Positions 2,189 through 14,606 are shown, counted from the first letter of the stretch. The stretch: 64,000 nt of DNA from Candidatus Heimdallarchaeum aukensis (GCA_021513695.1 CP084166.1:2112001-2176000); one strand, 5' to 3'. Made by a program: numbers and translations. The notes: a model not told the origin generated them from the letters alone.

Positions 2189-3179
2189 CGAATATTTTTT
2201 CTTTTTCTTTTTTACAAATAATTTCTTCTAATACCTCTCTTGACAACTTTCCTCCAGAAATAATTAAAACTACTGTTTTATTGGCAAATTTTTCTTGTTC
2301 TTTCAAAAGAGACGCAACTGATAATACTCCTGCTCCTTCTGCTATCATGAAATGTTTATCATATATTATCTCTATAGCTTCTTTTATCTCCTCTTCTGAT
2401 ACGATAACAAAATCGTCGACGTACTTTGAACAAAAATCGAGAGTGATTGATCCTTTTTCTATTCCTCCCGCACTTGCATCAGAAATGGTAGGGCTGACAT
2501 CATAATCTATTATCTTACCCGCTTCTACTGACTTGCTCATCACAGGAGAATTTCTAGGTTGACAACCGAAAATAGATATGTTCTTTGTTCTTTTATTTTC
2601 TTTTAAATATCCTGCAATACCTGAAATCAACCCTCCTCCTCCTACAGGAACAAAAACACAATCGATATTAGTTTCTTGTGTTTCAATTTCACGCGCAATA
2701 GTTCCTTGACCAGCAATAATATGAATATCATTGTATGGACTAACATAATGTGCTTTTTCTTCTTTTGCTTTTTTTTGGGCATAAAGTTCTGTTTGGAGGC
2801 AATCATATCCATAAAATTCTATGGTTACATTATATTCTTCAAGAGATTCCACTTTGTTTTTTTTGGTAGTGAATGGAAGATAAATTGTACCCTCTAAACC
2901 AAGTTTATCTAGTGCATAAGCCACAGCAAGACCATGATTTCCAGTGGATGCAGTAATAATGTTAGAATGTATACCTTGATTTTTTAAGTAAATTAGCTTG
3001 TTAAAAGCCCCCCTTACTTTGAAAGAGTTTGTAACTTGTATGTTTTCTAATTTTAAGAAAACCCTTGAATCCGTTATTCTGCTAAGATAAGGAGAAAATT
3101 CAAGGGGTGTTTTTCTTATACATTGTTTAATTCTCTCTTCTGCTTCAATAACTTCTTTTAGTACATCCATTTTTTTCAC
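2157..3179 (-). CDS. threonine/serine dehydratase (PLP fold type II)
   Basis: The PLP-lysine motif 'SFKVRGAFNKL' and a Gly-rich 'GGGGLISG' loop are present. It is 340 aa, a catabolic-type size. Confidence 0.8.
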   Translation of the reverse strand: MKKMDVLKEVIEAEERIKQCIRKTPLEFSPYLSRITDSRVFLKLENIQVTNSFKVRGAFNKLIYLKNQGIHSNIITASTGNHGLAVAYALDKLGLEGTIYLPFTTKKNKVESLEEYNVTIEFYGYDCLQTELYAQKKAKEEKAHYVSPYNDIHIIAGQGTIAREIETQETNIDCVFVPVGGGGLISGIAGYLKENKRTKNISIFGCQPRNSPVMSKSVEAGKIIDYDVSPTISDASAGGIEKGSITLDFCSKYVDDFVIVSEEEIKEAIEIIYDKHFMIAEGAGVLSVASLLKEQEKFANKTVVLIISGGKLSREVLEEIICKKEKEKIFVNPLDSLRLP

Positions 3180-3701
3180 TTAAGTCTCATTTTGATTTAC
3201 TATTTTAGCAATATATAACTCATTGCCATTTTGTATCATATCAATTTCTATTGTTTCGGGAAACTGATTGTTAGGAATCAAAATATTTGTTAACATAAAA
3301 AAGTCACTTGGTATAATATCTCTTTTCATATTTCTAATTTCTTCCTCTGAAAACCATGAAAGATTTCCTTCGTCTGTTTCTTTTACTTTTCCAGCTTTTA
3401 CTGTTGTCTCAGCCAAGAAAATAAGAAATTGTTTTAGTTGTTTCTTTGTATTATGATCAATTAAACGTTCGTTTATTATAGCTGTCTGTTTTTCCCATTT
3501 TACTCTCAAATTAGTTTCTTCTAAAACTTCTCGTAAACATGCTTCTTTAATTGTTTCTCCAAATTCTAACTTTCCTCCTACTAGGGCCCATTTTCCGATA
3601 TAATCTCCTCTCTCTCGACGAATCAATAGCCATTTATTTTCTACTGTGTCACGTATTCCTGCTACTACAACGTTTAAAATTCTACTTTTAGTTTCGCTCA
3701 T
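3180..3701 (-). CDS. Nudix hydrolase
   Basis: A Nudix box is present: 'GGKLEFGETIKEACLREVLEETNL' (GX5EX7REUXEEXGU). Confidence 0.75.
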   Translation of the reverse strand: MSETKSRILNVVVAGIRDTVENKWLLIRRERGDYIGKWALVGGKLEFGETIKEACLREVLEETNLRVKWEKQTAIINERLIDHNTKKQLKQFLIFLAETTVKAGKVKETDEGNLSWFSEEEIRNMKRDIIPSDFFMLTNILIPNNQFPETIEIDMIQNGNELYIAKIVNQNET

Positions 3702-3789
3702 ATCTTCTTATTATGTTTATATCATTAATTATTTTTCCTTCGAAATGAAATCCTTATAAACATTTATTATTTCTCGAAATCAAGAGACA

Positions 3790-4389
3790 ATGTCCAACAG
3801 AATGAATCAATTATTGCTCTCAATCCGAAGACGATTGGGAAAGCCAGAAGTTTCTATATTGATTATGGGAAATGATACTCCAGCAGCTAGGAACAGAGTA
3901 AAACTATTGAATGCAGAAATCTCAATTGATGATTTTCTCTTAGATGACTATCTTTCTAAGCTTCCAGTTGAAGACAAGTTTAAGTTTAAACCTAAACTTT
4001 TCGAATCATTTGAGGGGATTTTGTACCTTATCGATGCTACAAAAGAAGATATGATTAAGCATGAGCGAGCTTTCTTCTGGGAAAAAATCGTTTGGAACGA
4101 GGATATAAGAGAGAAGCCAATTGCAATTTGTGCTTATAATAGTAATTTACAAGGCTCTTTAACCAGTGGAGAACTCATAGAGAATCTGTCACTTGTTAGA
4201 TTAACAGATAGGGTTTGGAAGTTATTTGAGGTTGGAGACGTTAACGACTTATTAAGCGCATTAAACTGGCTTAAGGAAGCGATATGGATGGGTTGGACAT
4301 TAGATTGGGAAAGAAAAGAAAGTCTTAAAACTAAACTTTCTCAAAAAAAGATTGTTATTGTAGATAAGAAAAATGATAATGAATCTTAA
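3790..4389 (+). CDS. Arf-family small GTPase homologue with degenerate nucleotide-binding motifs (putative pseudo-GTPase)
   Basis: It aligns end to end with Arf1. 'RLGKPEVSILIMGNDTPAARNRVKLL' matches '[26 protein letters not shown]', so the P-loop GKT is replaced by AAR. There is no DxxGQ switch II. 'AICAYNSNL' sits where Arf has 'LLVFANKQDL', so NKxD is lost. The C-terminal 'VGDVNDLLSALNWL' matches Arf 'SGDGLYEGLDWL'. Confidence 0.55.
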   Translation: MSNRMNQLLLSIRRRLGKPEVSILIMGNDTPAARNRVKLLNAEISIDDFLLDDYLSKLPVEDKFKFKPKLFESFEGILYLIDATKEDMIKHERAFFWEKIVWNEDIREKPIAICAYNSNLQGSLTSGELIENLSLVRLTDRVWKLFEVGDVNDLLSALNWLKEAIWMGWTLDWERKESLKTKLSQKKIVIVDKKNDNES

Positions 4390-4427
4390 ATCTTTACTAT
4401 TGAAAGAATGATAAATGGTGCATTTAA

Positions 4428-5981
4428 ATGGTCAATACAGTTGAGGAATTAATAAAAACTGGCTATAAAGGGTATTCAGTTAGGCATATATTAATGAATA
4501 ACGAATTTAGAAAACGTGTAATCAATGATCCAAGTGTTAGAGGAAATGAAGACGCAAAGAATTTAGTCATGGATAAGCTTGCTGTCGGAGGAAAAGTACT
4601 TATCACAGGTCCTACAGGAGAAGCTAAAACGCTATTCAGTCGTATTCTCCTAGATCACATAGTTCGAGAAATTAATGATCATAAGTATCATATTGATTCC
4701 TGTCCTTTCCTTGAGGACGCAGGATACATTATTGATGTTATCGAGCAATTTGAAGTTGATCCGTTCAATGGAATAAAGGTTTTACAATCTCTTTGTCCTT
4801 TCTGTAGAGCTAAAATTGAAAATGCTTTGAGTGATGGGAAAGGAGATGTAAAATTAGATAATACAGCAAGTGTTCTTAAAACTAAACCCGTTGAATTCAA
4901 AGAAAAATTATTAAAAATCGGTGTAGAAAAAACTGTTGTACGAAAAGCACAACTTGACCCAAGAACAGACCCTGAAAGTCTCTATATGCTATTAGCTGGT
5001 GTAGAAAATCTAGAAGAACTGTTTGGAAAGGAAACTTCAACAACTTACACTCCAACATCACATAAAGTAGGTGTGCTTAGTAAAGGTTTTATTGTAGTTA
5101 ACGAAATTCAACGTCTTCCCCTATCCTTGCTCGAAGCACTGATGGGCTTTCTTGAAGACACAACTTCAATAAAGTATAATCTTCAAGGAGAACCTGTTTA
5201 TATTGATGGAGCAATGATATTTACTTCTAATGCTCCCTTAACAGTATTTGGAGAAGAATCACAACCTATTATCAATCGTATTCCAGAAGTTCTTTGGCCT
5301 GCAAGATCCGTGGAAAGTAGAAGTCAAATTGTTCGAGATATGTTTAGAGAACAAATTACGCTTTCTAGACAAAAAATAACCGCAAATCCAAGCATTGTTC
5401 AGTTGTATGATCGAGAAAAAAGCTCGAAGGATTATGTGAGTAAATTAGCCATAGATTTCCTCGCATTCATTGGAAATAACTCTTTACCAGAAGCTCTTAA
5501 AAAAGGACGAATTCGTTCTGAAAGTAGAGTTCAAAGATTAGACTTTTACGCAGGATTAGATGAAATCCATGATCCTCAAAGAAATCCACATATCGATTTA
5601 CGTACAACATCAAACATTGTGGGTAGCGTGTTGCTCAATAGAGAACGAGAACTTCAAGACGAAGAATATAATGTTGTTACAATAGAACATGTAAGAAAAG
5701 TATTAAACGATTACGATATTCCTTTAGCAATGATAAATGATGCACTACAGGAAATAAAAATAAAACTTAGATCCAACCTTAAAAGCGCGGGAATGGCTGT
5801 AAAAGCAGAAGATATAAGTGAAGATATATCAAAGATGAAGGCATTAAGTGACGAAGAATTATCCGAATTGATTATCAATTACGAAAAACTAGAACGATAC
5901 TATGAATCAGATGTTTTACCTAAAATCGTTGAACAACTCAAACCGAGTTATGAAGCTCTATTGAAGGTAGACTATATCTAA
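4428..5981 (+). CDS. AAA+ ATPase of the MoxR/Mg-chelatase ChlI-like clade
   Basis: 'RGNEDAKNLVMDKLAVGGKVLITGPTGEAKT' parallels ChlI 'VGQEEMKLALLL..GGVLIMGDRGTGKST' and supplies Walker A. 'GFIVVNEIQRLPLSLLEALMGFLED...IDGAMIFTSNAP' parallels the ChlI Walker B and sensor region. It starts 38 nt downstream of the Arf-like gene. Confidence 0.75.
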   Translation: MVNTVEELIKTGYKGYSVRHILMNNEFRKRVINDPSVRGNEDAKNLVMDKLAVGGKVLITGPTGEAKTLFSRILLDHIVREINDHKYHIDSCPFLEDAGYIIDVIEQFEVDPFNGIKVLQSLCPFCRAKIENALSDGKGDVKLDNTASVLKTKPVEFKEKLLKIGVEKTVVRKAQLDPRTDPESLYMLLAGVENLEELFGKETSTTYTPTSHKVGVLSKGFIVVNEIQRLPLSLLEALMGFLEDTTSIKYNLQGEPVYIDGAMIFTSNAPLTVFGEESQPIINRIPEVLWPARSVESRSQIVRDMFREQITLSRQKITANPSIVQLYDREKSSKDYVSKLAIDFLAFIGNNSLPEALKKGRIRSESRVQRLDFYAGLDEIHDPQRNPHIDLRTTSNIVGSVLLNRERELQDEEYNVVTIEHVRKVLNDYDIPLAMINDALQEIKIKLRSNLKSAGMAVKAEDISEDISKMKALSDEELSELIINYEKLERYYESDVLPKIVEQLKPSYEALLKVDYI

Positions 5982-6006
5982 AATTTGGTGAAGGTGGCAA
6001 AAACTA

Positions 6007-7392
6007 ATGCCCCATCGAATTTTTTTACTTACGGAATCAGAGTTTAGAGACCCTCTACAAAATTACGGCGATGCTGAGTTTATATTAGACTTTGAAGGTG
6101 CTGCTGAATTATTAAAACTTTGGCGTAATCCTCACCTAGGTAGGAGCTCTAGAGAAGGAGCTGTACTATCTTTAGGTGCAAAAAACGCTGTTGCAATCCA
6201 AAACATACTCCAAAAAATAATGACAACATATCTTACTGAAGCAGAAGAAGAGAGACTAATTAATGAACTAAAAATATTACAGTTTATTGGAGATAGAGTC
6301 CTCCCTGATGTTCTAGAACGTGTAAACAAGAACGAACTTCAAACAGTGGACGATATTATTCGATACATCCAGAATTTACTACGAGAACTGAAGTATGAGG
6401 GAACAGTTGATCTTAACCTTCTTGCAGATAAGTTGAACTCTCTTAAAGACATTGTTGATTTAGAAATTACAGATGCATACGGAAGAAAGAAGAGGATAAA
6501 ACGAGAAGAAGTGATGGATGTTTTAGGTAACATCCTTGGGCATTACCTTTTAAAGCAAATCAATGTTCTTCCTATTGATGAAGTTCAAAAACGCCCAAGA
6601 GGAACAATTAGACTTCGAGAAACCTATAAAAGTGCAGTGCTTAGTTCGCAATCAATTCCTCCAACGCGCGTAAAACAAGAAGATATTATCCGTGTGAAAA
6701 AAGATAGAAGAAGTTTAGTATATTTCTTAGTGGATTTAAGCCAATCAATGCAAAAAGAAGTGTTTGAGGGGGGAATGACAAGGTTAGATGGAGCTCTATT
6801 AACTGCTCTAAGTCTATATTACTACTTTAAAACCGCCAATAGGAGAAAAAGAAAGAGATACGATATGTTTCAACTTGCAGTAGTCCCTATTGTTCGAAAC
6901 CCCTTTGTAGTAGATGATGATACAAAAATGGAAGATCTTTTATTGAATGCTAAAGCCAAAGGAAAGACACATACTGTAAGCAGTGTTTTGAAAGCTATTG
7001 AGCATGCTAAAGCACAGTATAAGCATAAAAATATTGATGTTCAACTTACAATTGTAACGGATGGTATGCCAAACATACCTGTTTATCCATTTAATTACAA
7101 AATTAGTTCTTCATTAAAGAATTATTTCAATTCAATCGATACTAAAACCAGTCCAGAGACAATAGAGTGCTTGTTACAACTTAATGCCATATTTAAACAC
7201 TTAAAATCAGATCCTAATAGAAATTGGAACATAAGTTACTTTTTGATGGGTACAGAAGCTTTGAGAAAAAAGGAAATTTATAGTCATACGTATCAAATGT
7301 TGAAAGGTATAACTAAACCAATTTTAGTAGATCCTGCACAAATTAACAAACTTGGAGAGCAAGTACTACGGGAGAGTATTCACCATGCATAA
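6007..7392 (+). CDS. von Willebrand factor A (vWA) domain protein with intact MIDAS, partner of the upstream AAA+ ATPase
   Basis: The C-terminal half carries 'VYFLVDLSQSMQ' (DxSxS) and 'LTIVTDGMPN' (MIDAS Asp). An N-terminal region of about 220 aa has no recognised domain. Confidence 0.75.
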   Translation: MPHRIFLLTESEFRDPLQNYGDAEFILDFEGAAELLKLWRNPHLGRSSREGAVLSLGAKNAVAIQNILQKIMTTYLTEAEEERLINELKILQFIGDRVLPDVLERVNKNELQTVDDIIRYIQNLLRELKYEGTVDLNLLADKLNSLKDIVDLEITDAYGRKKRIKREEVMDVLGNILGHYLLKQINVLPIDEVQKRPRGTIRLRETYKSAVLSSQSIPPTRVKQEDIIRVKKDRRSLVYFLVDLSQSMQKEVFEGGMTRLDGALLTALSLYYYFKTANRRKRKRYDMFQLAVVPIVRNPFVVDDDTKMEDLLLNAKAKGKTHTVSSVLKAIEHAKAQYKHKNIDVQLTIVTDGMPNIPVYPFNYKISSSLKNYFNSIDTKTSPETIECLLQLNAIFKHLKSDPNRNWNISYFLMGTEALRKKEIYSHTYQMLKGITKPILVDPAQINKLGEQVLRESIHHA

Positions 7393-8977
7393 AGAAGAAT
7401 TAGCTGACATCATTGATGTGTATCTGCAAGCAAGAAAAGATTTCTTAGAACTGGTAGGTGAAACACCAGAGAATTATAGAATACTTATTTTTCTTAACCC
7501 TGATTTACATATTTCTGTTAACAGGGTGATTGAAAGTGCAGGAACTCCCCAGGCAATCTTAACTGCTGAAGAAGTTGTTCATCTACAATCAGCAAGAAAT
7601 AATGAATATATGCCGTTAGGGAAAGAAACAGTTTTTAACAGCATACCCACACTAATTTATCTTTCAACACCTCGTTATGAATTGACAGAGGAAGAGAAAA
7701 TAACTTTGAGAATAATGATAGTTCATGCTTTTGCTCATGCCTATATGAATGAAAAAACAGAATCCAATAATCCTAAACAGTTATCTCGCATATACCAACT
7801 AGATGTAATTTTAAAAGAATTATTCCAAAATAATGCTTACAAAATTAACGAAGAAACAAACAAACAGTTGATGTGGACTTGGCAGTACTATCAAGATCTA
7901 ATAAGCGTTATACGATTGTTTGTTGAGGCTGGAGTACAAGACTTTTATTCTCCTCCTGAAGAAGCAAGAAAATACACTTTATTCAACAACTTTTCAATTG
8001 AGGTTATTAAGGTTCTAAAGGAAAGAGCAAAAGAATCAAGAAAGAAACATCTCCACGATTTAATCGATGAAGGATTTGCATTCTATATTCAAAGGATGCA
8101 TTTAGATTATTTGAATAAAAATAAACAAGTCCCCAAGAATCTTCCTAAAGAACTTAAACCCTTTATGGCTCCCCCTGTTGGAAAAATAAGTTTGTTCTTA
8201 GTTGATAAACTAAAATTGGCTATAAGCGAACAAATAGAAAAGGAGAAAAAGGAGAGCCTTTCGTCAGAAGAAATTGAAAAAAGATTGTTTGATAAACTGT
8301 TTAGCTTTAGGACTGATTTAGAATTTCTTGAGACTTTTGATTGGCAAGAGCTAAAAAATTGGGTGTCTGAACAAAAAAGAGCTCATTCAGAAAAAGTGTT
8401 AAAGGATTGGCATGTAACAACTACCAATTTCACTGATATTTGGTCTGTTTATGCTTATGGTTGGACACAACTGGAAAATTACATCAAAAAGATATATAGA
8501 AAGAAATACAGTACTTTTGGACAATTGATGGATGATAACCCAAAAATAGAATTCAAGGGATATTTAACTGTTGATGAAAAGAAAGTTTATGTCTTTGAAA
8601 TCAATAACGAAGGTGTGGGACTAGATCAATTGGTTATTTTGCATAATCACATGGCTTTATATCGTGAAGATTTTGCTACCATACTTCCTGCTTTTGCAGA
8701 CATTATCGCTTTCAAAAAAATCAGAGGTATGCACGTTGCAACTTTGTTTGCTGTCCATAAAATTAGTAGAAAACAACCAATTAGTCCCTATAACTTGCCT
8801 ATTGTGACTAGAGCTGTTCAAGTAACGAAAAGAAAGGATGCATACAAAACTGAACTCGATGAAGAAAAAGAGAAAATGGAAGTTGAACGAGTAGACTATA
8901 CACATTTGAAGAAACTCTCTCAACCTCAAAGAAACGCTATAAGTTATCTAATAAAGGAAGGAATGTACTATGTTTAA
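7352..8977 (+). CDS. hypothetical protein (541 aa), co-operonic with the MoxR/vWA pair; the true start is possibly the ATG at 7385
   Basis: It is a long ORF with a possible degenerate zincin-like 'IVHAFAHAYMNE' (HxxxH without Glu). Its start overlaps the vWA stop (ATGCATAA coupling at 7385) and its stop overlaps the next start (ATGTTTAA). Confidence 0.5.
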   Translation: MESKYYGRVFTMHKEELADIIDVYLQARKDFLELVGETPENYRILIFLNPDLHISVNRVIESAGTPQAILTAEEVVHLQSARNNEYMPLGKETVFNSIPTLIYLSTPRYELTEEEKITLRIMIVHAFAHAYMNEKTESNNPKQLSRIYQLDVILKELFQNNAYKINEETNKQLMWTWQYYQDLISVIRLFVEAGVQDFYSPPEEARKYTLFNNFSIEVIKVLKERAKESRKKHLHDLIDEGFAFYIQRMHLDYLNKNKQVPKNLPKELKPFMAPPVGKISLFLVDKLKLAISEQIEKEKKESLSSEEIEKRLFDKLFSFRTDLEFLETFDWQELKNWVSEQKRAHSEKVLKDWHVTTTNFTDIWSVYAYGWTQLENYIKKIYRKKYSTFGQLMDDNPKIEFKGYLTVDEKKVYVFEINNEGVGLDQLVILHNHMALYREDFATILPAFADIIAFKKIRGMHVATLFAVHKISRKQPISPYNLPIVTRAVQVTKRKDAYKTELDEEKEKMEVERVDYTHLKKLSQPQRNAISYLIKEGMYYV

Positions 8978-9719
8978 AAGATGGTTAATGATAAAAAAAT
9001 TAGGAAGCGAAATAGACTTAGATAGACTAAAAGCTGTTCTTTTTTTAAGAAAGAAAGGGAAAGACAAGGACATCAATAATCTTTTGCCACTTTTAAGTGA
9101 CAAGGATTGGAATGTAAGAAACGCTACAGCATTGACTATAATTAAACTCGTTAATCTTTATCCAGAAAAAAAAGAGGAAATCCTACTAAAGCTTCATCAA
9201 TTACTTGAAAAGAGATCCTTAGCTACAAAACTGTCTGTATTGGAAATCCTGGGACAGTTAAGAGACTATTCCTCGAAAGATTTTATCAAAAAAATTATTG
9301 AAGAAAGTGATTATGATTTACAATATGCAGCTATTAGAGCAATAGGTTATCTTGATGACGTTGACATTTTATCTTCTTTGAAAGAAGTGGTTTACTCAAA
9401 AGATTACATCACACGAAGAGCAGTGATCTTTTCAATATTGCGAATAGTTAATTCAGTTGAAGAAGAAAAGAAAGTTGAACTCCTAACTCCTCACATCCAC
9501 TTATTAATTCAAGTTTATTTAGAGTTAAATGAATTGGGCGAGGTAATCTATAAAATCCTAGATTACGGAGATCCAGAGCAATTTCCAGGAATGAAACCGT
9601 ATTCAGAATTTGAGATAATCAGATTAACTTCATTAATTGAACAATACGATTATCGAGTTCCAGTCTATAAGAACTTTGCAAAAATAATTTATCCTCTTTA
9701 TTTTCCTTTAAATAGTTGA
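8970..9719 (+). CDS. HEAT-repeat (PBS-lyase-like) protein
   Basis: It contains repeated 'LLPLLSDKDWNVRNATALTIIKL'-type alpha-helical repeats and is the last gene of the tightly coupled operon. Confidence 0.6.
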   Translation: MFKRWLMIKKLGSEIDLDRLKAVLFLRKKGKDKDINNLLPLLSDKDWNVRNATALTIIKLVNLYPEKKEEILLKLHQLLEKRSLATKLSVLEILGQLRDYSSKDFIKKIIEESDYDLQYAAIRAIGYLDDVDILSSLKEVVYSKDYITRRAVIFSILRIVNSVEEEKKVELLTPHIHLLIQVYLELNELGEVIYKILDYGDPEQFPGMKPYSEFEIIRLTSLIEQYDYRVPVYKNFAKIIYPLYFPLNS

Positions 9720-9723
9720 ATTT

Positions 9724-10048
9724 AATCACCATCTATTTTTTACTTCTTGTCTACTGCAATTTCACTGCAACTTTTTTTGATATTTTATAAATCAAGATGT
9801 GCATTTATACTTTTGACCTTTATTCTTGCATTATTTCTTTTTTACTGCAATTTCTCTGCAGATTTAATGCAATTTCCACTGCAATTTTACTGCAATGTTT
9901 GAATTTATTTTATAAAATGTTATATTCTTGAATAATATAGCTTATAACTCCTAATTTTATTATGGATGTCTAATATACGTTATTGAAAGGTGGTATATTA
10001 TTATTTGTTACTTTCTTATTGTAAAGAACCCCTTATTAGATGGTGATT
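9724..10048. repeat. intergenic element bounded by a 12-bp perfect inverted repeat and containing tandem ACTGCAAT-type repeats
   Basis: 'AATCACCATCTA' at 9724-9735 is the reverse complement of 'TAGATGGTGATT' at 10037-10048. Between them lie at least six copies of '(A/T)TTT(C/T)ACTGCAA(T)' at about 9750-9895. Confidence 0.35.
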
Positions 10049-10228
10049 GTTTTATTTCCACTGGAACGAGTTATTAAGCTGAATGGTTAAAACTGCAACT
10101 ATACCCTGAAATGAGTGTTTATAGGCACTTTCTCTTTCTAGCACTTTCACTAACTTAAATAGAATGTTTGTATTAGTTTTTTTCTAATTGCTCAAAAATG
10201 TTCTCCTAGCTTAAACGTAATAATATTT

Positions 10229-10675
10229 TCATGTCTTATTTTTATGTGCAAGGATCTCTTTAATTAGCAGTAAAAGTAGAATAGGAAACAGAGAACCAAT
10301 ACAGAAAGGTATCAATTTAACGAGTAATAGCTGTATTGTTCTTAAATTTCCACATCCTTTACTATGCCAAATAAGATAAATTAATGTTAAAGTTAGACTA
10401 GTAACAAAATTAATTATTCTTAGGATGAACATGTTTGATACGATTTTACTAAATTTCCAAAGGTAGATAGTGATATTATAGGTATTAAACAGAGCTAATA
10501 GTGTTGTAATAGAAAAGAGTAAGATATAAGTTATTCCTATTGGGTATATAATGCATAATACAGTGGGAGTATATCTGATGTACAAAAACAAATATAATCC
10601 AATTAAGGTAATTGTCAAAATCCCCTCAAGAGAAAGAAAAATCGTTTCATCCCGATTGTTATTACCCAAACTCAC
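10229..10675 (-). CDS. hypothetical small membrane protein
   Basis: It is a hydrophobic 148-aa ORF with several predicted TM segments and no recognisable motif. It may be spurious in AT-rich DNA. Confidence 0.3.
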   Translation of the reverse strand: MSLGNNNRDETIFLSLEGILTITLIGLYLFLYIRYTPTVLCIIYPIGITYILLFSITTLLALFNTYNITIYLWKFSKIVSNMFILRIINFVTSLTLTLIYLIWHSKGCGNLRTIQLLLVKLIPFCIGSLFPILLLLLIKEILAHKNKT

Positions 10676-10815
10676 ATTTTAGACATGTACTCTAATTTAT
10701 ATTAATTTTATTATCTTTTGGGCTAATTATGGTAAATCCACATAAATTAGTTTATAATGTAAATAATTCTGAATCAATAAATATATTTTTCAAATAAATA
10801 GAGATGATAATATAG

Positions 10816-12798
10816 ATGCCATTAAACATCGAAACTCCTTTTACTCCTAAAGGAGACCAACCTAAAGCTATTGAACAATTAGTGGAAGGAATAAAAAAAG
10901 GGTATAAACTACAGACACTTTTAGGGACTACGGGAAGCGGGAAAACTGACAGCATAGCATGGGTCATTGACCGTCTTAAACTTCCCACTTTGGTTATTGC
11001 CCCTAACAAAACTCTCGCTGCTCAACTTTATGGTGAGTTTAAAGTTCTTTTTCCTTCAGCTCGTGTTGAGTATTTTGTTAGTTTTTATGATTATTATCAA
11101 CCTGAAGCTTATCTTCCTTCCAAGGATCTTCTTATTGAGAAAGATTTTGATATTAACGAAGAAATTGAACGCTTACGCCATTCTGCCACCGAAGCATTAG
11201 CTACTCGCGATGACGTGATAGTTGTTGCTTCTGTTAGTTGTATTTATGGCATTGGAGACCCTGCAATCTATCGAGCAAAGCGTTTAGAGCTTGTTGTTGG
11301 ACAAGAATTTGATAGAGAAGAGTTAATGACACAACTCATCAATAACCGATATGAACGTAACGATATTAATCTAACTAGAGGAAAGTTTAGGGTTCGGGGA
11401 GACACTATCGATATTTTTCCTCAGTATGGAGATTATATTTATCGTGTAGAATTTTTCGGAGATGAAATAGAAAGATTAACTTCCAGAGATCCTGTTACAT
11501 ATAACCAAGTTCGTGAATTCCAAGAACTCACCTTTTATCCTGGAACACATTATCTTACTCGTGATAATTTATTTGACCAAGCTTTAGCTGATATAGAACA
11601 AGAGCTGGAAGAACGATTGGCTGAATTAAAAAGTCAAGGTAAACTTGTTGAATATCAAAGGCTCAAACAACGGACGAAATATGATCTAGAATTACTAAGA
11701 GAGACAAAATATTGTCCTGGAATTGAAAATTATTCTCGTCATTTAGACAGAAGAAAAAAAGGAGAACCTCCTTATACTCTGATGGATCATATGCCTGATG
11801 ATTTTCTTTTGGTAATTGATGAGAGTCATCTTACTATTCCACAAATAAAAGGAATGTTTGGTGGAGACTATTCTCGAAAAAAGAATCTAGTAGATTATGG
11901 TTTTAGATTACCTAGCGCTTTTGATAATAGACCTTTAAAATTTGATGAATTTAAGAAATATATGAAAAAAGTCATCTTTACTAGTGCAACTCCTGGGCCT
12001 TATGAAATTGAGCACTCTGAACAGATAGTGGAGCAGATTATTAGACCTACAGGGCTTGTAGATCCTAAAATTGAAGTAAGAAAAACAGAAGGGCAAATTG
12101 ATGACCTATTAGGAGAAATAAAAAAACAAGTTAGGAAGGGTGGTAGAGTACTTGTTACCACATTAACAAAAGACAACGCTGAGATGCTTTCGGATTATTT
12201 AATTGATAACGGAATCAACTCTGTCTATTTACATCATGAAGTAGATACATTAGACAGAATAAACATATTAAGGGACTTAAGAATCGGAAAATATGATGTC
12301 ATAGTTGGGATTAATCTTCTTCGTGAAGGACTAGACCTTCCAGAAGTAGGGTTAGTCGCTATTCTTGATGCAGATAAAGAAGGTTTTCTAAGATCTAAAA
12401 GCTCTCTAATTCAATTAATGGGTAGAGCAAGTAGAAACGTTAGCGGGAGTGTTATTTTGTATGCTGATAAAATTACAGATTCTATGAAAGAAGCTATATT
12501 TGAGAATAACAGACGAAGAAGAATACAGATAGAATATAATCGAAAACATGGAATTAACCCTCAAACAATAAAGAAAGAAGTGAAATCCATAGTAGAAACT
12601 TTAATGCAAGTGTCTCAAAAGGAGGAAGAGGAAGAGATAACTATTGATAGAAGTGAACTCACAGTAGAAAAGATAATGGCTATTATCAATGAACTAAAAG
12701 AGAAAATGGCAGAAGCTGCTGCCAACCTAGAATTTGAAAAAGCTGCTATTTACAGAGATAAAATACGTGAAATTGAGAAGCAGGTAGATACTAAATGA
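10816..12798 (+). CDS. uvrB: excinuclease ABC subunit B
   Basis: 'GDQPKAIEQL', Walker A 'GTTGSGKT', helicase motifs, and the C-terminal UvrB/UvrC interaction helix 'FEKAAIYRDKIREIE' are all present. Confidence 0.95.
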   Translation: MPLNIETPFTPKGDQPKAIEQLVEGIKKGYKLQTLLGTTGSGKTDSIAWVIDRLKLPTLVIAPNKTLAAQLYGEFKVLFPSARVEYFVSFYDYYQPEAYLPSKDLLIEKDFDINEEIERLRHSATEALATRDDVIVVASVSCIYGIGDPAIYRAKRLELVVGQEFDREELMTQLINNRYERNDINLTRGKFRVRGDTIDIFPQYGDYIYRVEFFGDEIERLTSRDPVTYNQVREFQELTFYPGTHYLTRDNLFDQALADIEQELEERLAELKSQGKLVEYQRLKQRTKYDLELLRETKYCPGIENYSRHLDRRKKGEPPYTLMDHMPDDFLLVIDESHLTIPQIKGMFGGDYSRKKNLVDYGFRLPSAFDNRPLKFDEFKKYMKKVIFTSATPGPYEIEHSEQIVEQIIRPTGLVDPKIEVRKTEGQIDDLLGEIKKQVRKGGRVLVTTLTKDNAEMLSDYLIDNGINSVYLHHEVDTLDRINILRDLRIGKYDVIVGINLLREGLDLPEVGLVAILDADKEGFLRSKSSLIQLMGRASRNVSGSVILYADKITDSMKEAIFENNRRRRIQIEYNRKHGINPQTIKKEVKSIVETLMQVSQKEEEEEITIDRSELTVEKIMAIINELKEKMAEAAANLEFEKAAIYRDKIREIEKQVDTK

Positions 12799-14606
12799 AT
12801 ATTGTTTCTGATATAGAAAGATTACCTACTGGTCCTGGAGTATATTTGATCAAAGATTCAGAGGGAAATGTAATCTATATCGGAAAAGCTAAAAATCTAA
12901 AAGATAGAGTTAAACAACATTTTTCTGAAACATCTTCAGAAATAAAGAAAGAACGAGCTATTCAAGAACAAGCTTACAATATAGATTTCTTAGAAACAAG
13001 AACAGAAACAGAAGCAATATTGCTTGAAAGAAGATTGATTAAAGATATTAAACCTAAACTAAATGTTAGAAGTAAGGATGATAAATCCTCTCTTCTTATC
13101 CGTATTAGTAAAGAAGAACCATTTCCTCAATTATATGTAGTAAGAGAAACAGATCCTCACGTAGAAGGGAGCATCTATTTTGGTCCTTATGGGTACGACA
13201 GGAAACTAAGGGATACAGTAAAACTAGTTTTGAAACTATTCCCTATAGCTAATTGTGGTGAAAAATTATACAAATATAGAGAAAAGAAAAGTGTAAACCG
13301 ATGTATGCGTAAAAGAATAGGTCAATGTATTGCTTGTGATAAGAGCGTGAGTCCAGAGAAATATAATCAGATAGTTGAAAATGTGATAAACTTTTTAGAA
13401 GGAAATGTGGGCGCACTTCTAGATTCCTTGGAAAAAGAAATGTGGGAAGAAGGAAAAAAAGAAAATTTTGAACGTGCTGCAGTTCTACGCGATCTAATAA
13501 ATTCTGTTAGAAAAATAGTCTCCATTCAGAAAGAAAACAATTTTGACGTAGATGATATAGTTGTAATAGCAACCAGAGAAGAGCAAGAAGTATTATCCTT
13601 CTGTAAAATTGAAATTAAAAATAAAAGAATCAATCGTATAATTTCAGATTCTATCGTTCTTGAAACAAAAAGTGAAAATTTTACTCTCTCTAATTTATTG
13701 TCTTTAATAGGTACTAATCCTTCTGAAATAGACCATTTAGTTGTAGATGAGGTTTTTATTAAAAAAATCCAAAATGATCTAAAAGTTAAACTAATTACCC
13801 CTGATAGTAAAATATTGAAAGATGTATTCACTATAGCAAAAAGGAACGCTTTTAACGAGCTTGCACGTTATTTTAGCTCAAAAACACGTGAGAAAAACAT
13901 CAAAAAAGTATTAGAAGATATGAAAGTAATTCTAAAACTCCCTAAGCTCCCTATAATTATACACGGATATGACATTTCTACTCTTGGAGGAAAACACTCA
14001 ACAGGCTCATGTGTTGTGTTCAAGAACGGGAAACCTGAAAAAAGATATTATAAACAATTTAAAATAAGACAAGAATATTCTGACCCAAATGACTACGCTA
14101 TGATGCGTGAAGTGTTAAGAAGACATTATTCAAATTACAATGATTTTGATGAACCCCAACCTGATCTAATTTTACTTGATGGAGGAAAAGGTCAACTTAA
14201 TGTTGCAGTTAAAGTATTAAAAGAATTAAAGTTGGACTTGCCTTTAGTTTCAATAGCAAAAAAAGAGGAAGAACTTTTTGTTCCATGGGATACAAATCCT
14301 GTAGTCCTTCCAAGAGAATCTGAAGTGTTGAAACTTCTTCAACAAATAAGAGATGAAGCTCACCGTTTTGCCATTCAATACTCAAAACAACTGAGAACAA
14401 GAAAATTAGGTCGTTCTACTTTTGAAAAAATAAAAGGAATAGGACCAAAAAAAGCTGTATTGTTGAACACCTATTTTGATAATTTACAGGATATAGGAAG
14501 TGCCTCTGTTGCTGAAATAATGAAATTAATTAAAGTAGATGAGCAAACAGCGGTTCAAGTTTTAAATTTAGCAAAAAACTTGACAAATTCAGTTTCTTTT
14601 GAATAA
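12795..14606 (+). CDS. uvrC: excinuclease ABC subunit C
   Basis: It has an N-terminal GIY-YIG 'GVYLIKDSEGNVIYIGKAKNLKDRV' and a C-terminal RNase H-like endonuclease plus HhH region. Its start overlaps the uvrB stop (ATGA). Confidence 0.9.
   Translation: MNIVSDIERLPTGPGVYLIKDSEGNVIYIGKAKNLKDRVKQHFSETSSEIKKERAIQEQAYNIDFLETRTETEAILLERRLIKDIKPKLNVRSKDDKSSLLIRISKEEPFPQLYVVRETDPHVEGSIYFGPYGYDRKLRDTVKLVLKLFPIANCGEKLYKYREKKSVNRCMRKRIGQCIACDKSVSPEKYNQIVENVINFLEGNVGALLDSLEKEMWEEGKKENFERAAVLRDLINSVRKIVSIQKENNFDVDDIVVIATREEQEVLSFCKIEIKNKRINRIISDSIVLETKSENFTLSNLLSLIGTNPSEIDHLVVDEVFIKKIQNDLKVKLITPDSKILKDVFTIAKRNAFNELARYFSSKTREKNIKKVLEDMKVILKLPKLPIIIHGYDISTLGGKHSTGSCVVFKNGKPEKRYYKQFKIRQEYSDPNDYAMMREVLRRHYSNYNDFDEPQPDLILLDGGKGQLNVAVKVLKELKLDLPLVSIAKKEEELFVPWDTNPVVLPRESEVLKLLQQIRDEAHRFAIQYSKQLRTRKLGRSTFEKIKGIGPKKAVLLNTYFDNLQDIGSASVAEIMKLIKVDEQTAVQVLNLAKNLTNSVSFE

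Follow-up and report, generated by a model that had tools for sequence, protein, structure and literature searches.

A conserved five-gene operon of Heimdallarchaeia encodes a divergent AAA+ ATPase and a vWA protein together with an Arf-derived pseudo-GTPase, a putative zincin-like pseudo-peptidase and a HEAT-repeat protein

What might a AAA+ ATPase and a von Willebrand factor A (vWA) protein do in the company of an Arf-derived pseudo-GTPase, a large orphan protein and a HEAT-repeat protein? The question is raised by five co-directional open reading frames (ORFs) on the plus strand at positions 3790-9719 of a 64,000-nucleotide stretch of the Candidatus Heimdallarchaeum aukensis genome (GCA_021513695.1, CP084166.1:2112001-2176000; hereafter the window). 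[quoted passage not shown] Taking gene order, domain content and conservation together, we favour, with moderate confidence, the view that the operon encodes a cytosolic housekeeping complex for protein remodelling or assembly that is specific to Heimdallarchaeia and vertically inherited.

The five genes are tightly packed. Gaps of 38 and 25 nt separate g1 from g2 and g2 from g3, respectively, 8-nt overlaps join g3 to g4 (ATGCATAA, 7385-7392) and g4 to g5 (ATGTTTAA, 8970-8977), and Shine-Dalgarno-like GGTG/GGAGG motifs lie 5' of g2, g3, g4 and g5. The layout agrees with the initial annotation, which had placed the five ORFs at these coordinates with gaps of no more than 38 nt and with both start/stop overlaps.

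When the species representatives of GTDB were scanned with a degenerate pattern from the g2 alignment, 55 distinct loci were obtained. Almost all of them carry the label Heimdallarchaeota, Kariarchaeota or Asgard (Promethearchaeati); among the rest are single metagenome-assembled genomes (MAGs) labelled Thorarchaeota and Bathyarchaeia. Phmmer searches with the five window proteins recovered all five genes in one orientation and in the order g1-g2-g3-g4-g5 in nearly every locus whose contig was long enough, the order being kept in about 45-53 of the 55 species loci. When all flanking ORFs were clustered, g2 was found in 58 loci, g3 in 53, g4 in 47, g1 in 45 and g5 in 44, followed by the NUDIX gene with 26 loci, which by its coordinates belongs to the window's own family; beyond the family level, this clustering revealed no conserved neighbour other than the five genes themselves. 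The vWA gene g3 lies directly 3' of g2 in 53 loci and is separated from it in Hodarchaeales-like genomes, and g5 is kept 3' of g4 in 43-44 loci. The coding overlaps, spanning 4-11 nt where conserved, recur at the g3/g4 junction in 34 of 46 loci and at the g4/g5 junction in 31 of 43. The initial annotation had seen here, in an Asgard-like genome, a AAA+/vWA(MIDAS) pair whose partner genes encode an Arf-fold pseudo-GTPase, a HEAT solenoid and a large unknown protein, and this synteny is upheld across nearly all of the 55 Heimdallarchaeia loci, the g2 product being 98% identical to a protein of Ca. Heimdallarchaeum endolithica PR6 (CP084167.1). Its view that no described system couples a MoxR-vWA pair to such partners also held: no curated family in Pfam, NCBIfam or PADLOC describes the operon, no description of it was found in the literature searched on Asgard Arfs, MoxR/vWA systems and Heimdallarchaeum genomes, and the source databases name these proteins 'hypothetical'.

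The five proteins also diverge in step. Pairwise-identity matrices for 37 genomes are correlated at r 0.95-0.99, the slowest to evolve being g2, with a minimum of 48% identity, and the fastest g1 and g5 (16-18%). Identity of g2 steps down by lineage, from 68-83% through about 55% and about 53% to about 42%, the last in Hodarchaeales-like genomes. Each genome scanned holds a single locus, and identical copies are present on several JGI and Logan contigs. Such strong constraint on g2, at least 48% identity over 37 genomes, is as expected of a core function. A chance juxtaposition of unrelated genes, or a set of mis-called ORFs, is a practically negligible prospect, because gene order, overlapping junctions and co-divergence are kept across dozens of species: the order is identical even where g2 has diverged to about 50% identity, the overlaps are conserved, and the co-divergence reaches r of at least 0.95. 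The operon has apparently been inherited vertically, and is apparently conserved in and confined to Heimdallarchaeia.

By fold, g2 falls in the MoxR/Mg-chelatase/MCM clade of AAA+ ATPases, which is marked by the pre-sensor-1 hairpin and the helix-2 insert, and its nearest folds are RavA, BchI and MoxR. Its Walker A motif reads GPTGEAKT and its Walker B motif VVNE, ending in Asn-Glu. This replacement of the Walker B Asp by Asn is present in all 54 g2 sequences, in which K67, E226, the sensor-1 residue N268, R284, R293 and R392 are likewise invariant. An insert of about 80 residues carries a cluster of Cys92, Cys123 and Cys126 (with His88), and the protein ends in a helical extension of about 90 residues. 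At the sequence level, g2 scored 14.2 bits against Pfam AAA_5, below the cut-off of 22, and matched neither AAA_3 nor the NCBIfam MoxR models; for 22 of 23 orthologs, only sub-threshold matches to AAA_5 and Sigma54_activat were obtained. A sequence search of the PDB returned no match, MoxR structures included, a profile built from 23 g2 sequences returned the same approximately 106 Heimdallarchaeia clusters and none beyond, and word-indexed searches found no relative outside the Heimdallarchaeia family. Since fold and partner place g2 in the MoxR/chelatase clade and the curated models fail to match it, we file it there without a named subfamily; fold comparison gave it no special affinity to midasin or dynein. 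Slow or partner-gated hydrolysis is suggested because the Walker B motif is invariantly Asn-Glu, and we predict that g2 is probably a slow or tightly regulated ATPase.

The partner encoded by g3 combines two parts. The N-terminal domain (residues 1 to about 230) is helical and conserved and matches no known family, and Pfam scans of 21 orthologs found no match to any AAA model in it. The C-terminal vWA domain (residues 236-445, approximately) holds a complete MIDAS (D243-x-S245-x-S247, T321 and D352) whose residues are invariant in 50 of 50 orthologs. Sub-threshold matches were obtained to VWA_2 for 18 of 21 orthologs, to VWA for 7 and to VWA_CoxE for 5, and in a profile search of the PDB the GKT...TDG region was matched by the vWA domain of TRAP. 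A candidate for a 'finger' that enters the pore of the ATPase ring is the stretch of about 40 residues (355-395) that comes next after the TDG motif.

A AAA+/vWA core accompanied by constant further parts formally resembles the ternary logic of VMAP/iSTAND systems, in which HEAT/TPR scaffolds and inactive NTPases also occur (PMC7159879), and the initial annotation had considered a conflict system built on NTPases, of the MoxR-vWA ternary kind. On such an account, g4, g5 and g1 would be new sensor or effector parts of an anti-virus or conflict system; in its favour one could cite that g5 very weakly matched HEAT-ARM_XIII and WGR_XIII in PADLOC (E 1e-3 to 2.5e-4). However, these matches reflect generic HEAT similarity, and no VMAP, iSTAND or MoxR-vWA model was matched. 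The operon encodes no effector domain (nuclease, TIR, caspase or pore-former), g3 has a constant architecture with no C-terminal effector in 50 orthologs, and none of the five proteins contains a transmembrane-compatible hydrophobic segment. MoxR-vWA ternary systems are mobile and diversifying and are concentrated in multicellular bacteria (PMC7159879), whereas the operon has a fixed architecture without domain shuffling or a variable effector, occurs as one locus per scanned genome with lineage-stepped identity, and sits between housekeeping genes with neither adjoining defence genes nor mobile-element hallmarks. As PADLOC, transmembrane, effector and mobility signs are all absent, with a best PADLOC E value of 2.5e-4, the suggestion was not borne out, and we regard a conflict system as very improbable.

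Among the five proteins, g4 has the narrowest family. Its N-terminal part of about 190 residues appears to have a zincin fold of the M1/thermolysin-like type, with H114-A-F-A-H118 in place of HExxH. Next come a long helical stretch and, at the C-terminus, an alpha/beta domain that bears the most conserved motifs of the family (EQLLILHNH, PGxPD, SPY and TRAVQV). The catalytic Glu position is occupied by A, S, L or T in 45 of 45 orthologs. His114 is found in 38 of the 45 and His118 in 34; both His residues and the invariant D140 are kept in Heimdallarchaeaceae and in a clade at 53% identity, and the His residues are lost in a Kariarchaeaceae-like clade in which the operon is still present. An active metallopeptidase, suggested by the HAFAH motif, was therefore rejected, the Glu never being present and the His being lost in one clade. 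An exhaustive hidden Markov model (HMM) search of 1.84 billion protein representatives recovered 21 clusters, four of which were checked for their source and all came from Heimdallarchaeia-type MAGs; neither a eukaryotic homologue nor anything else outside the narrow family was found among the 1.84 billion proteins in this profile search, and a sequence search of the PDB was empty. Foldseek gave no significant match, histidine kinases and PDK (DHp and GHKL-like domains) at probability ≤0.2 being noise. The initial annotation had listed g4 as an unknown protein of 541 residues. It is indeed an orphan family, but the length of 541 corresponds to an alternative TTG start at 7352, whereas gene callers on identical contigs choose the ATG that gives 530; the description of its N-terminal domain as a zincin-like pseudo-peptidase is new, as is that of the invariant Asn-Glu in the Walker B motif of g2.

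The relic site of g4, together with other features of the operon, bears on a sub-case of the favoured view, in which the operon would encode a chaperone for metallo-cofactor insertion or enzyme maturation like NorQD, CoxDE or class I chelatases. In this case g2-g3 would open a Heimdallarchaeia enzyme, and g4 and g5 would hold the metal, the cofactor or the apo-enzyme. Many characterised MoxR-vWA pairs mature metal centres or cofactors, NorQD targeting FeB of cNOR and CoxDE the Mo-Cu centre of CO dehydrogenase, although CbbQO, which activates Rubisco, does not (PMC13036017, PMC9976466). The weak CoxE-type vWA similarity of g3, the relic metal site of g4 (H114, H118, D140/E145), the Cys3(+His) cluster of g2 and the PBS-lyase-type HEAT repeats of g5, a class that handles tetrapyrrole-like ligands and to whose members NblB and CpcE/F g5 shows sub-threshold likeness, are all consistent with it. 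Against these, the metal site of g4 cannot be essential, because the Kariarchaeaceae-like clade has kept the operon without these His residues; the HEAT_PBS similarity is generic; and in none of the lineages does the operon have a gene for a candidate target enzyme linked to it. Moreover, a large subunit of the ChlH/CobN type was found neither in the operon nor among its conserved neighbours, and class I chelatase activity is excluded because the H/N subunit is absent. We judge a role of the complex in metal insertion or cofactor maturation fairly unlikely.

The Arf relationship of g1 is genuine. The protein scored 28.1 bits against Pfam Arf (cut-off 22.3), aligning by residues 70-164 to profile positions 78-173, that is, with the C-terminal half only. 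A profile of 18 orthologs searched against solved structures matched Arl1 (E 1.9e-10), Arf1, Arf6, Arl3 and Arl8 among dozens of Arf/Arl structures at E 2e-10 to 1e-5, as well as chains 8ouk-8oun, which are labelled 'Arf GTPase' or 'GTP-binding protein' and are probably Asgard Arfs. The C-terminal signature of the family is kept (LSLVRLTDRVW...NWL), the alignment covering the family pattern LxLxxLxDRxW...(D/N)WL, and the N-terminal part keeps the Arf layout of a helix followed by ...EVSILIMG-; in Heimdallarchaeaceae, the N-terminus resembles an Arf N-terminal helix and then beta-1 (MNQLLLSIRRRLGKPEVSILIMG). The nucleotide-binding motifs, by contrast, are gone. GNDTPAAR stands in place of the P-loop and YNSN in place of NKxD, the switch II motif DxxGQ is absent, and the switch I/interswitch region is shortened. 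Neither GxxxxGK[ST] nor DxxG[QHE] is present in any of 45 orthologs, and the G4 position reads YN[ST][ND] or PNxx, with the Lys lost. Because the P-loop, G3 and the G4 Lys are lost in all orthologs, g1 is, as judged from its motifs, an Arf-derived pseudo-GTPase family-wide and not a functional member of the Arf family.

The position of g1 in the locus varies. In a Kariarchaeaceae-like subclade it is absent from its usual slot; one such genome has a g1 copy about 9 kb 3' of g2 on the opposite strand, and another has one 2 kb upstream, also on the opposite strand. As a separate observation, Heimdallarchaeum genomes encode a bona fide 312-residue Arf/Ras GTPase (Pfam Arf, Ras, Roc and SRPRB) a few genes upstream of the operon, about 6 kb 5' of g1 and just beyond the 5' end of the window (3488-4426 in locus L011, 3458-4396 in L001). 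Apart from orthologs, the g1 HMM matched no other ORF of the fetched loci (E 3e-7 for this GTPase).

The HEAT assignment of g5 is firm, with 48.5 bits against Pfam HEAT_2 (cut-off 27.7, E 1.1e-12) and 28 bits against Pfam HEAT (cut-off 23.5, E 2e-6). Weak matches to Adaptin_N and Cnd1 (E ~0.01) represent generic HEAT similarity, and the best NCBIfam likeness, to the bilin-handling HEAT proteins NblB and CpcE/F, lies far below cut-off. The domain calls of the initial annotation, namely Arf for g1, AAA+ for g2 (here by fold), vWA for g3 and HEAT for g5, were thus right in substance, and its reading of g1 as an Arf relative was confirmed by profile searches (Arl1 E 1.9e-10, as above) as opposed to an unrelated fold.

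An Arf relative and a HEAT solenoid in one operon recall the Arf/adaptin and Arl2/TBCD pairs, and g1 and g5 could be imagined as part of a membrane-trafficking-like or coat-assembly machine whose complex would be assembled or recycled, at membranes or on cytoskeletal proteins, by the AAA+/vWA motor. The initial annotation had entertained a remodelling or trafficking-like machine with the pseudo-GTPase as adaptor or regulator. The true Arf descent of g1, the Arf-helix-like N-terminus in Heimdallarchaeaceae and the weak Adaptin_N and Cnd1 matches of g5 would fit, the same orders possess active Arf paralogues in abundance (PMC11914678), and in eukaryotes the pseudo-GTPase AAGAB chaperones the assembly of adaptin complexes (PMC12490416). 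But g1 cannot switch, because the P-loop and switch II are absent in 45 of 45 orthologs; its N-terminal helix is not conserved, since the clade at 53% identity does not have it, and several lineages have relocated or lost g1 itself. In addition, g1-g5 contain no transmembrane or obvious membrane-binding segment, the HEAT matches are generic, g4 has no eukaryotic homologue and g2 no affinity to midasin or dynein. A trafficking role therefore appears quite improbable.

The mechanism that we propose for the favoured remodelling complex is modelled on NorQ/NorD, CbbQ/CbbO and RavA/ViaA. In the NorQ/NorD system, the hexameric ATPase binds one NorD, whose vWA 'finger' sits in the pore; the MIDAS of NorD binds carboxylates of the target, its unrelated N-domain is proposed to give specificity, and the hydrolysis of ATP drives a remodelling of NorD that is passed on to the client (PMC9976466, PMC13036017). 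By analogy, g2 would form a hexameric ring of the MoxR/chelatase clade and g3 would be its cognate adaptor, the vWA domain docking on the ring, the MIDAS capturing a client carboxylate and the N-domain conferring specificity. The catalytically dead, zincin-like scaffold g4, which would retain its binding groove, and the g5 solenoid would be made in fixed stoichiometry with g3 and serve as a client-binding platform, or would themselves be the product that is assembled or remodelled. Tight translational coupling and strict co-divergence suggest that g3, g4 and g5 are stoichiometric subunits. The class-I-type pseudo-GTPase g1 would act as a nucleotide-independent protein-protein adaptor or regulator, and we place it at the periphery of the complex, since it has been moved or lost in some lineages. 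Since the catalytic residues of g1 and g4 are lost in every ortholog and the proteins are still under selection, structural roles fit both.

This proposal builds on direct observations, namely the order of the genes, their conservation, the identities of the domains and the states of the motifs; the formation of a complex, the ATPase activity and the roles of g4, g5 and g1 are what we infer. Several points count against it. In two Hodarchaeales-like assemblies, g2 lies between unrelated small ORFs and without g1; in one of the two, GCA_048938655, g3, g4 and a gene for a 424-residue HEAT-like protein lie about 40 genes from g2 on the same contig; and on one 2.85-Mb contig g2 stands alone. Obligate co-translation is not universal, because the Hodarchaeales-like operon is split and g2 occurs alone elsewhere. 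The operon neighbourhood contains no pointer to a client enzyme in any lineage. Finally, given the Asp-to-Asn replacement, g2 could bind ATP and yet barely hydrolyse it.

Some further observations were made at these and other loci. The small ORFs beside the Hodarchaeales-like g2 (192 and 201 residues) were considered as divergent g1 copies and rejected (hhalign probability ~0.1%); the 192-residue ORF has a winged helix-turn-helix-like appearance. Near the relocated g3-g4-HEAT block of the Hodarchaeales-like contig JBHLLX010000019 (locus L066, 5247-7079 and 16413-17003), two proteins are encoded, one a defence-like TPR protein of 610 residues that contains a TIR_2 domain, the other a 196-residue gelsolin-domain protein of eukaryotic-signature type, neither of which is kept beside the operon elsewhere. 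On one otherwise identical contig (locus L006, 2999-5967, Logan SRR15988958), g3 is split into ORFs of 256 and 205 residues and g4 into ORFs of 338 and 193 residues, which suggests frameshifts; these may stem from errors in assembly or sequencing, or from a variant in the population whose operon is disrupted.

Signals that could delimit the operon were read from the window sequence. A TATA-box-like TTATAAA on the plus strand (3754-3760), about 33 nt 5' of the g1 ATG, sits in the 88-nt divergent spacer common to g1 and the NUDIX gene (3180-3701, minus strand), which is divergent from the operon. With the promoter spacing usual in archaea, it is a putative operon promoter that would give a near-leaderless g1 transcript. 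Directly 3' of the g5 stop, two oligo-T runs on the plus strand (T6 at 9736-9741 and T7 at 9772-9778) are a probable transcription terminator marking the operon end, as oligo-T tracts terminate transcription in archaea. They are followed by UvrB and UvrC, a gene-free region of about 500 nt intervening after g5. The flanking genes are of housekeeping type (NUDIX, PALP, OTCase, UvrB and UvrC), and an Rfam scan of positions 3000-11000 gave no match to any RNA family.

The gene-free region 3' of g5 holds a cluster of the heptamer ACTGCAA. The 13 copies in the window, against 8.5 expected, are an ordinary total; the clustering is unusual, with six of them, all on the plus strand, at 9753-10098. Five of these fall within 143 nt (9753-9895), partly with an 11-nt spacing (9753/9764 and 9878/9889) and with degenerate copies between them. 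The cluster could be an array of transcription-factor binding sites or a degenerate tandem repeat, and the region differs between the otherwise near-identical contigs L001 and L002. Excision-repair genes accompany the locus in two distant lineages: UvrB and UvrC lie 3' of g5 at window positions 10816-14606 in Heimdallarchaeaceae, and UvrA lies about 4-7 kb 3' of the isolated g2 in Hodarchaeales-like genomes (16906-17551 in L007, 11821-14736 in L069). The linkage may be a coincidence, because it is absent from other clades.

Of all known archaea, Heimdallarchaeia are most closely related to eukaryotes, and their Arf-family GTPases are expanded; since the Arf-derived g1 has fixed genomic partners, its function is directly approachable. 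Class-wide strong purifying selection suggests a core process peculiar to Heimdallarchaeia, and the identity of the client could expose cell biology specific to this group. On present evidence we regard the operon as a lineage-specific invention and not as a eukaryotic signature system, because the exhaustive profile search found no eukaryotic homologue of g4 and g2 has no special structural affinity to midasin or dynein. A stronger form of the proposal, a single five-subunit AAA+ machine in which an Arf protein has turned into a nucleotide-free adaptor that couples the motor and its MIDAS partner to a platform of HEAT and pseudo-peptidase proteins, seems to us unlikely. If true, it would provide the first archaeal Arf-family protein with defined partners, a prokaryotic precedent for the pseudo-GTPase-guided assembly of solenoids that later became eukaryotic logic (AAGAB/adaptins, Arl2/TBCD), and a AAA+/MIDAS remodelling step analogous to that of midasin. 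The MoxR-vWA paradigm is in any case extended here by a motor too divergent for curated models, with an invariant Asn-Glu Walker B motif, and by the company of a HEAT protein and of two pseudo-enzymes that are conserved.

Each part of the operon has counterparts in known systems. In its C-terminal half and overall layout, g1 is like the Arf/Arl small GTPases, the Asgard AArfs included, from which it differs in lacking G1, G3 and the G4 Lys in all orthologs. The zincin-like domain of g4 differs from M1-family aminopeptidases and other gluzincins in the missing catalytic Glu (45 of 45 orthologs), in the loss of the His ligands in one clade and in having no GxMEN motif; no relation is detectable at the sequence level, and the rest of g4 matches nothing known. 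Among the relatives of these peptidases are pseudo-peptidases such as TAF2. The pseudo-GTPase domain of AAGAB, a pure binding module for subunits of adaptor complexes, has lost its nucleotide-binding motifs as g1 has, and a role of g1 as a binding module would match it (PMC12490416). AAGAB, unlike g1, is not Arf-derived.

At the level of the whole operon, the VMAP/iSTAND ternary systems also combine a AAA+/vWA core with a constant extra part, inactive NTPase parts and solenoid scaffolds (PMC7159879); different from them, the operon lacks effectors, variability and mobility, and is lineage-structured, vertical-looking and limited to one archaeal class. Compared to the chelatases BchI/BchD (ChlI/ChlD) and CobS/CobT, it has no large porphyrin-binding H/N subunit, the N-domain of g3 is helical and without the AAA match of BchD, and no tetrapyrrole genes are found near it. 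The MRP-subfamily MoxR operons, exemplified by the Bacteroides aerotolerance ('Bat') operon, encode MoxR, DUF58, vWA and TPR proteins, and likewise join a MoxR-type ATPase and a vWA protein with alpha-solenoid repeat proteins. Here, the repeats are HEAT and not TPR, an Arf pseudo-GTPase and a pseudo-zincin are added, DUF58 and membrane anchors are missing, and the host is an archaeon.

The closest likeness is to the MoxR-vWA pairs NorQ/NorD, CbbQ/CbbO, RavA/ViaA and CoxD/CoxE, in which a AAA+ protein of the same structural clade as g2 is encoded directly 5' of its vWA partner. The layout of g3, a presumed N-terminal specificity domain followed by a C-terminal vWA domain with a DxSxS-T-D MIDAS, is common to NorD, CbbO and ViaA. 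Unlike these pairs, g2 falls below all curated MoxR/AAA_3/AAA_5 thresholds, has an Asn-Glu Walker B motif, a Cys3 insert and a C-terminal extension, and belongs to a family found in Heimdallarchaeia only; furthermore, g2 and g3 are tied to three more dedicated genes, with no client enzyme gene adjoining. The mechanism of g2-g3 is nevertheless probably the same as that of the MoxR-vWA pairs, with a hexameric ring engaging one adaptor, whose MIDAS would act on an acidic patch of the client.

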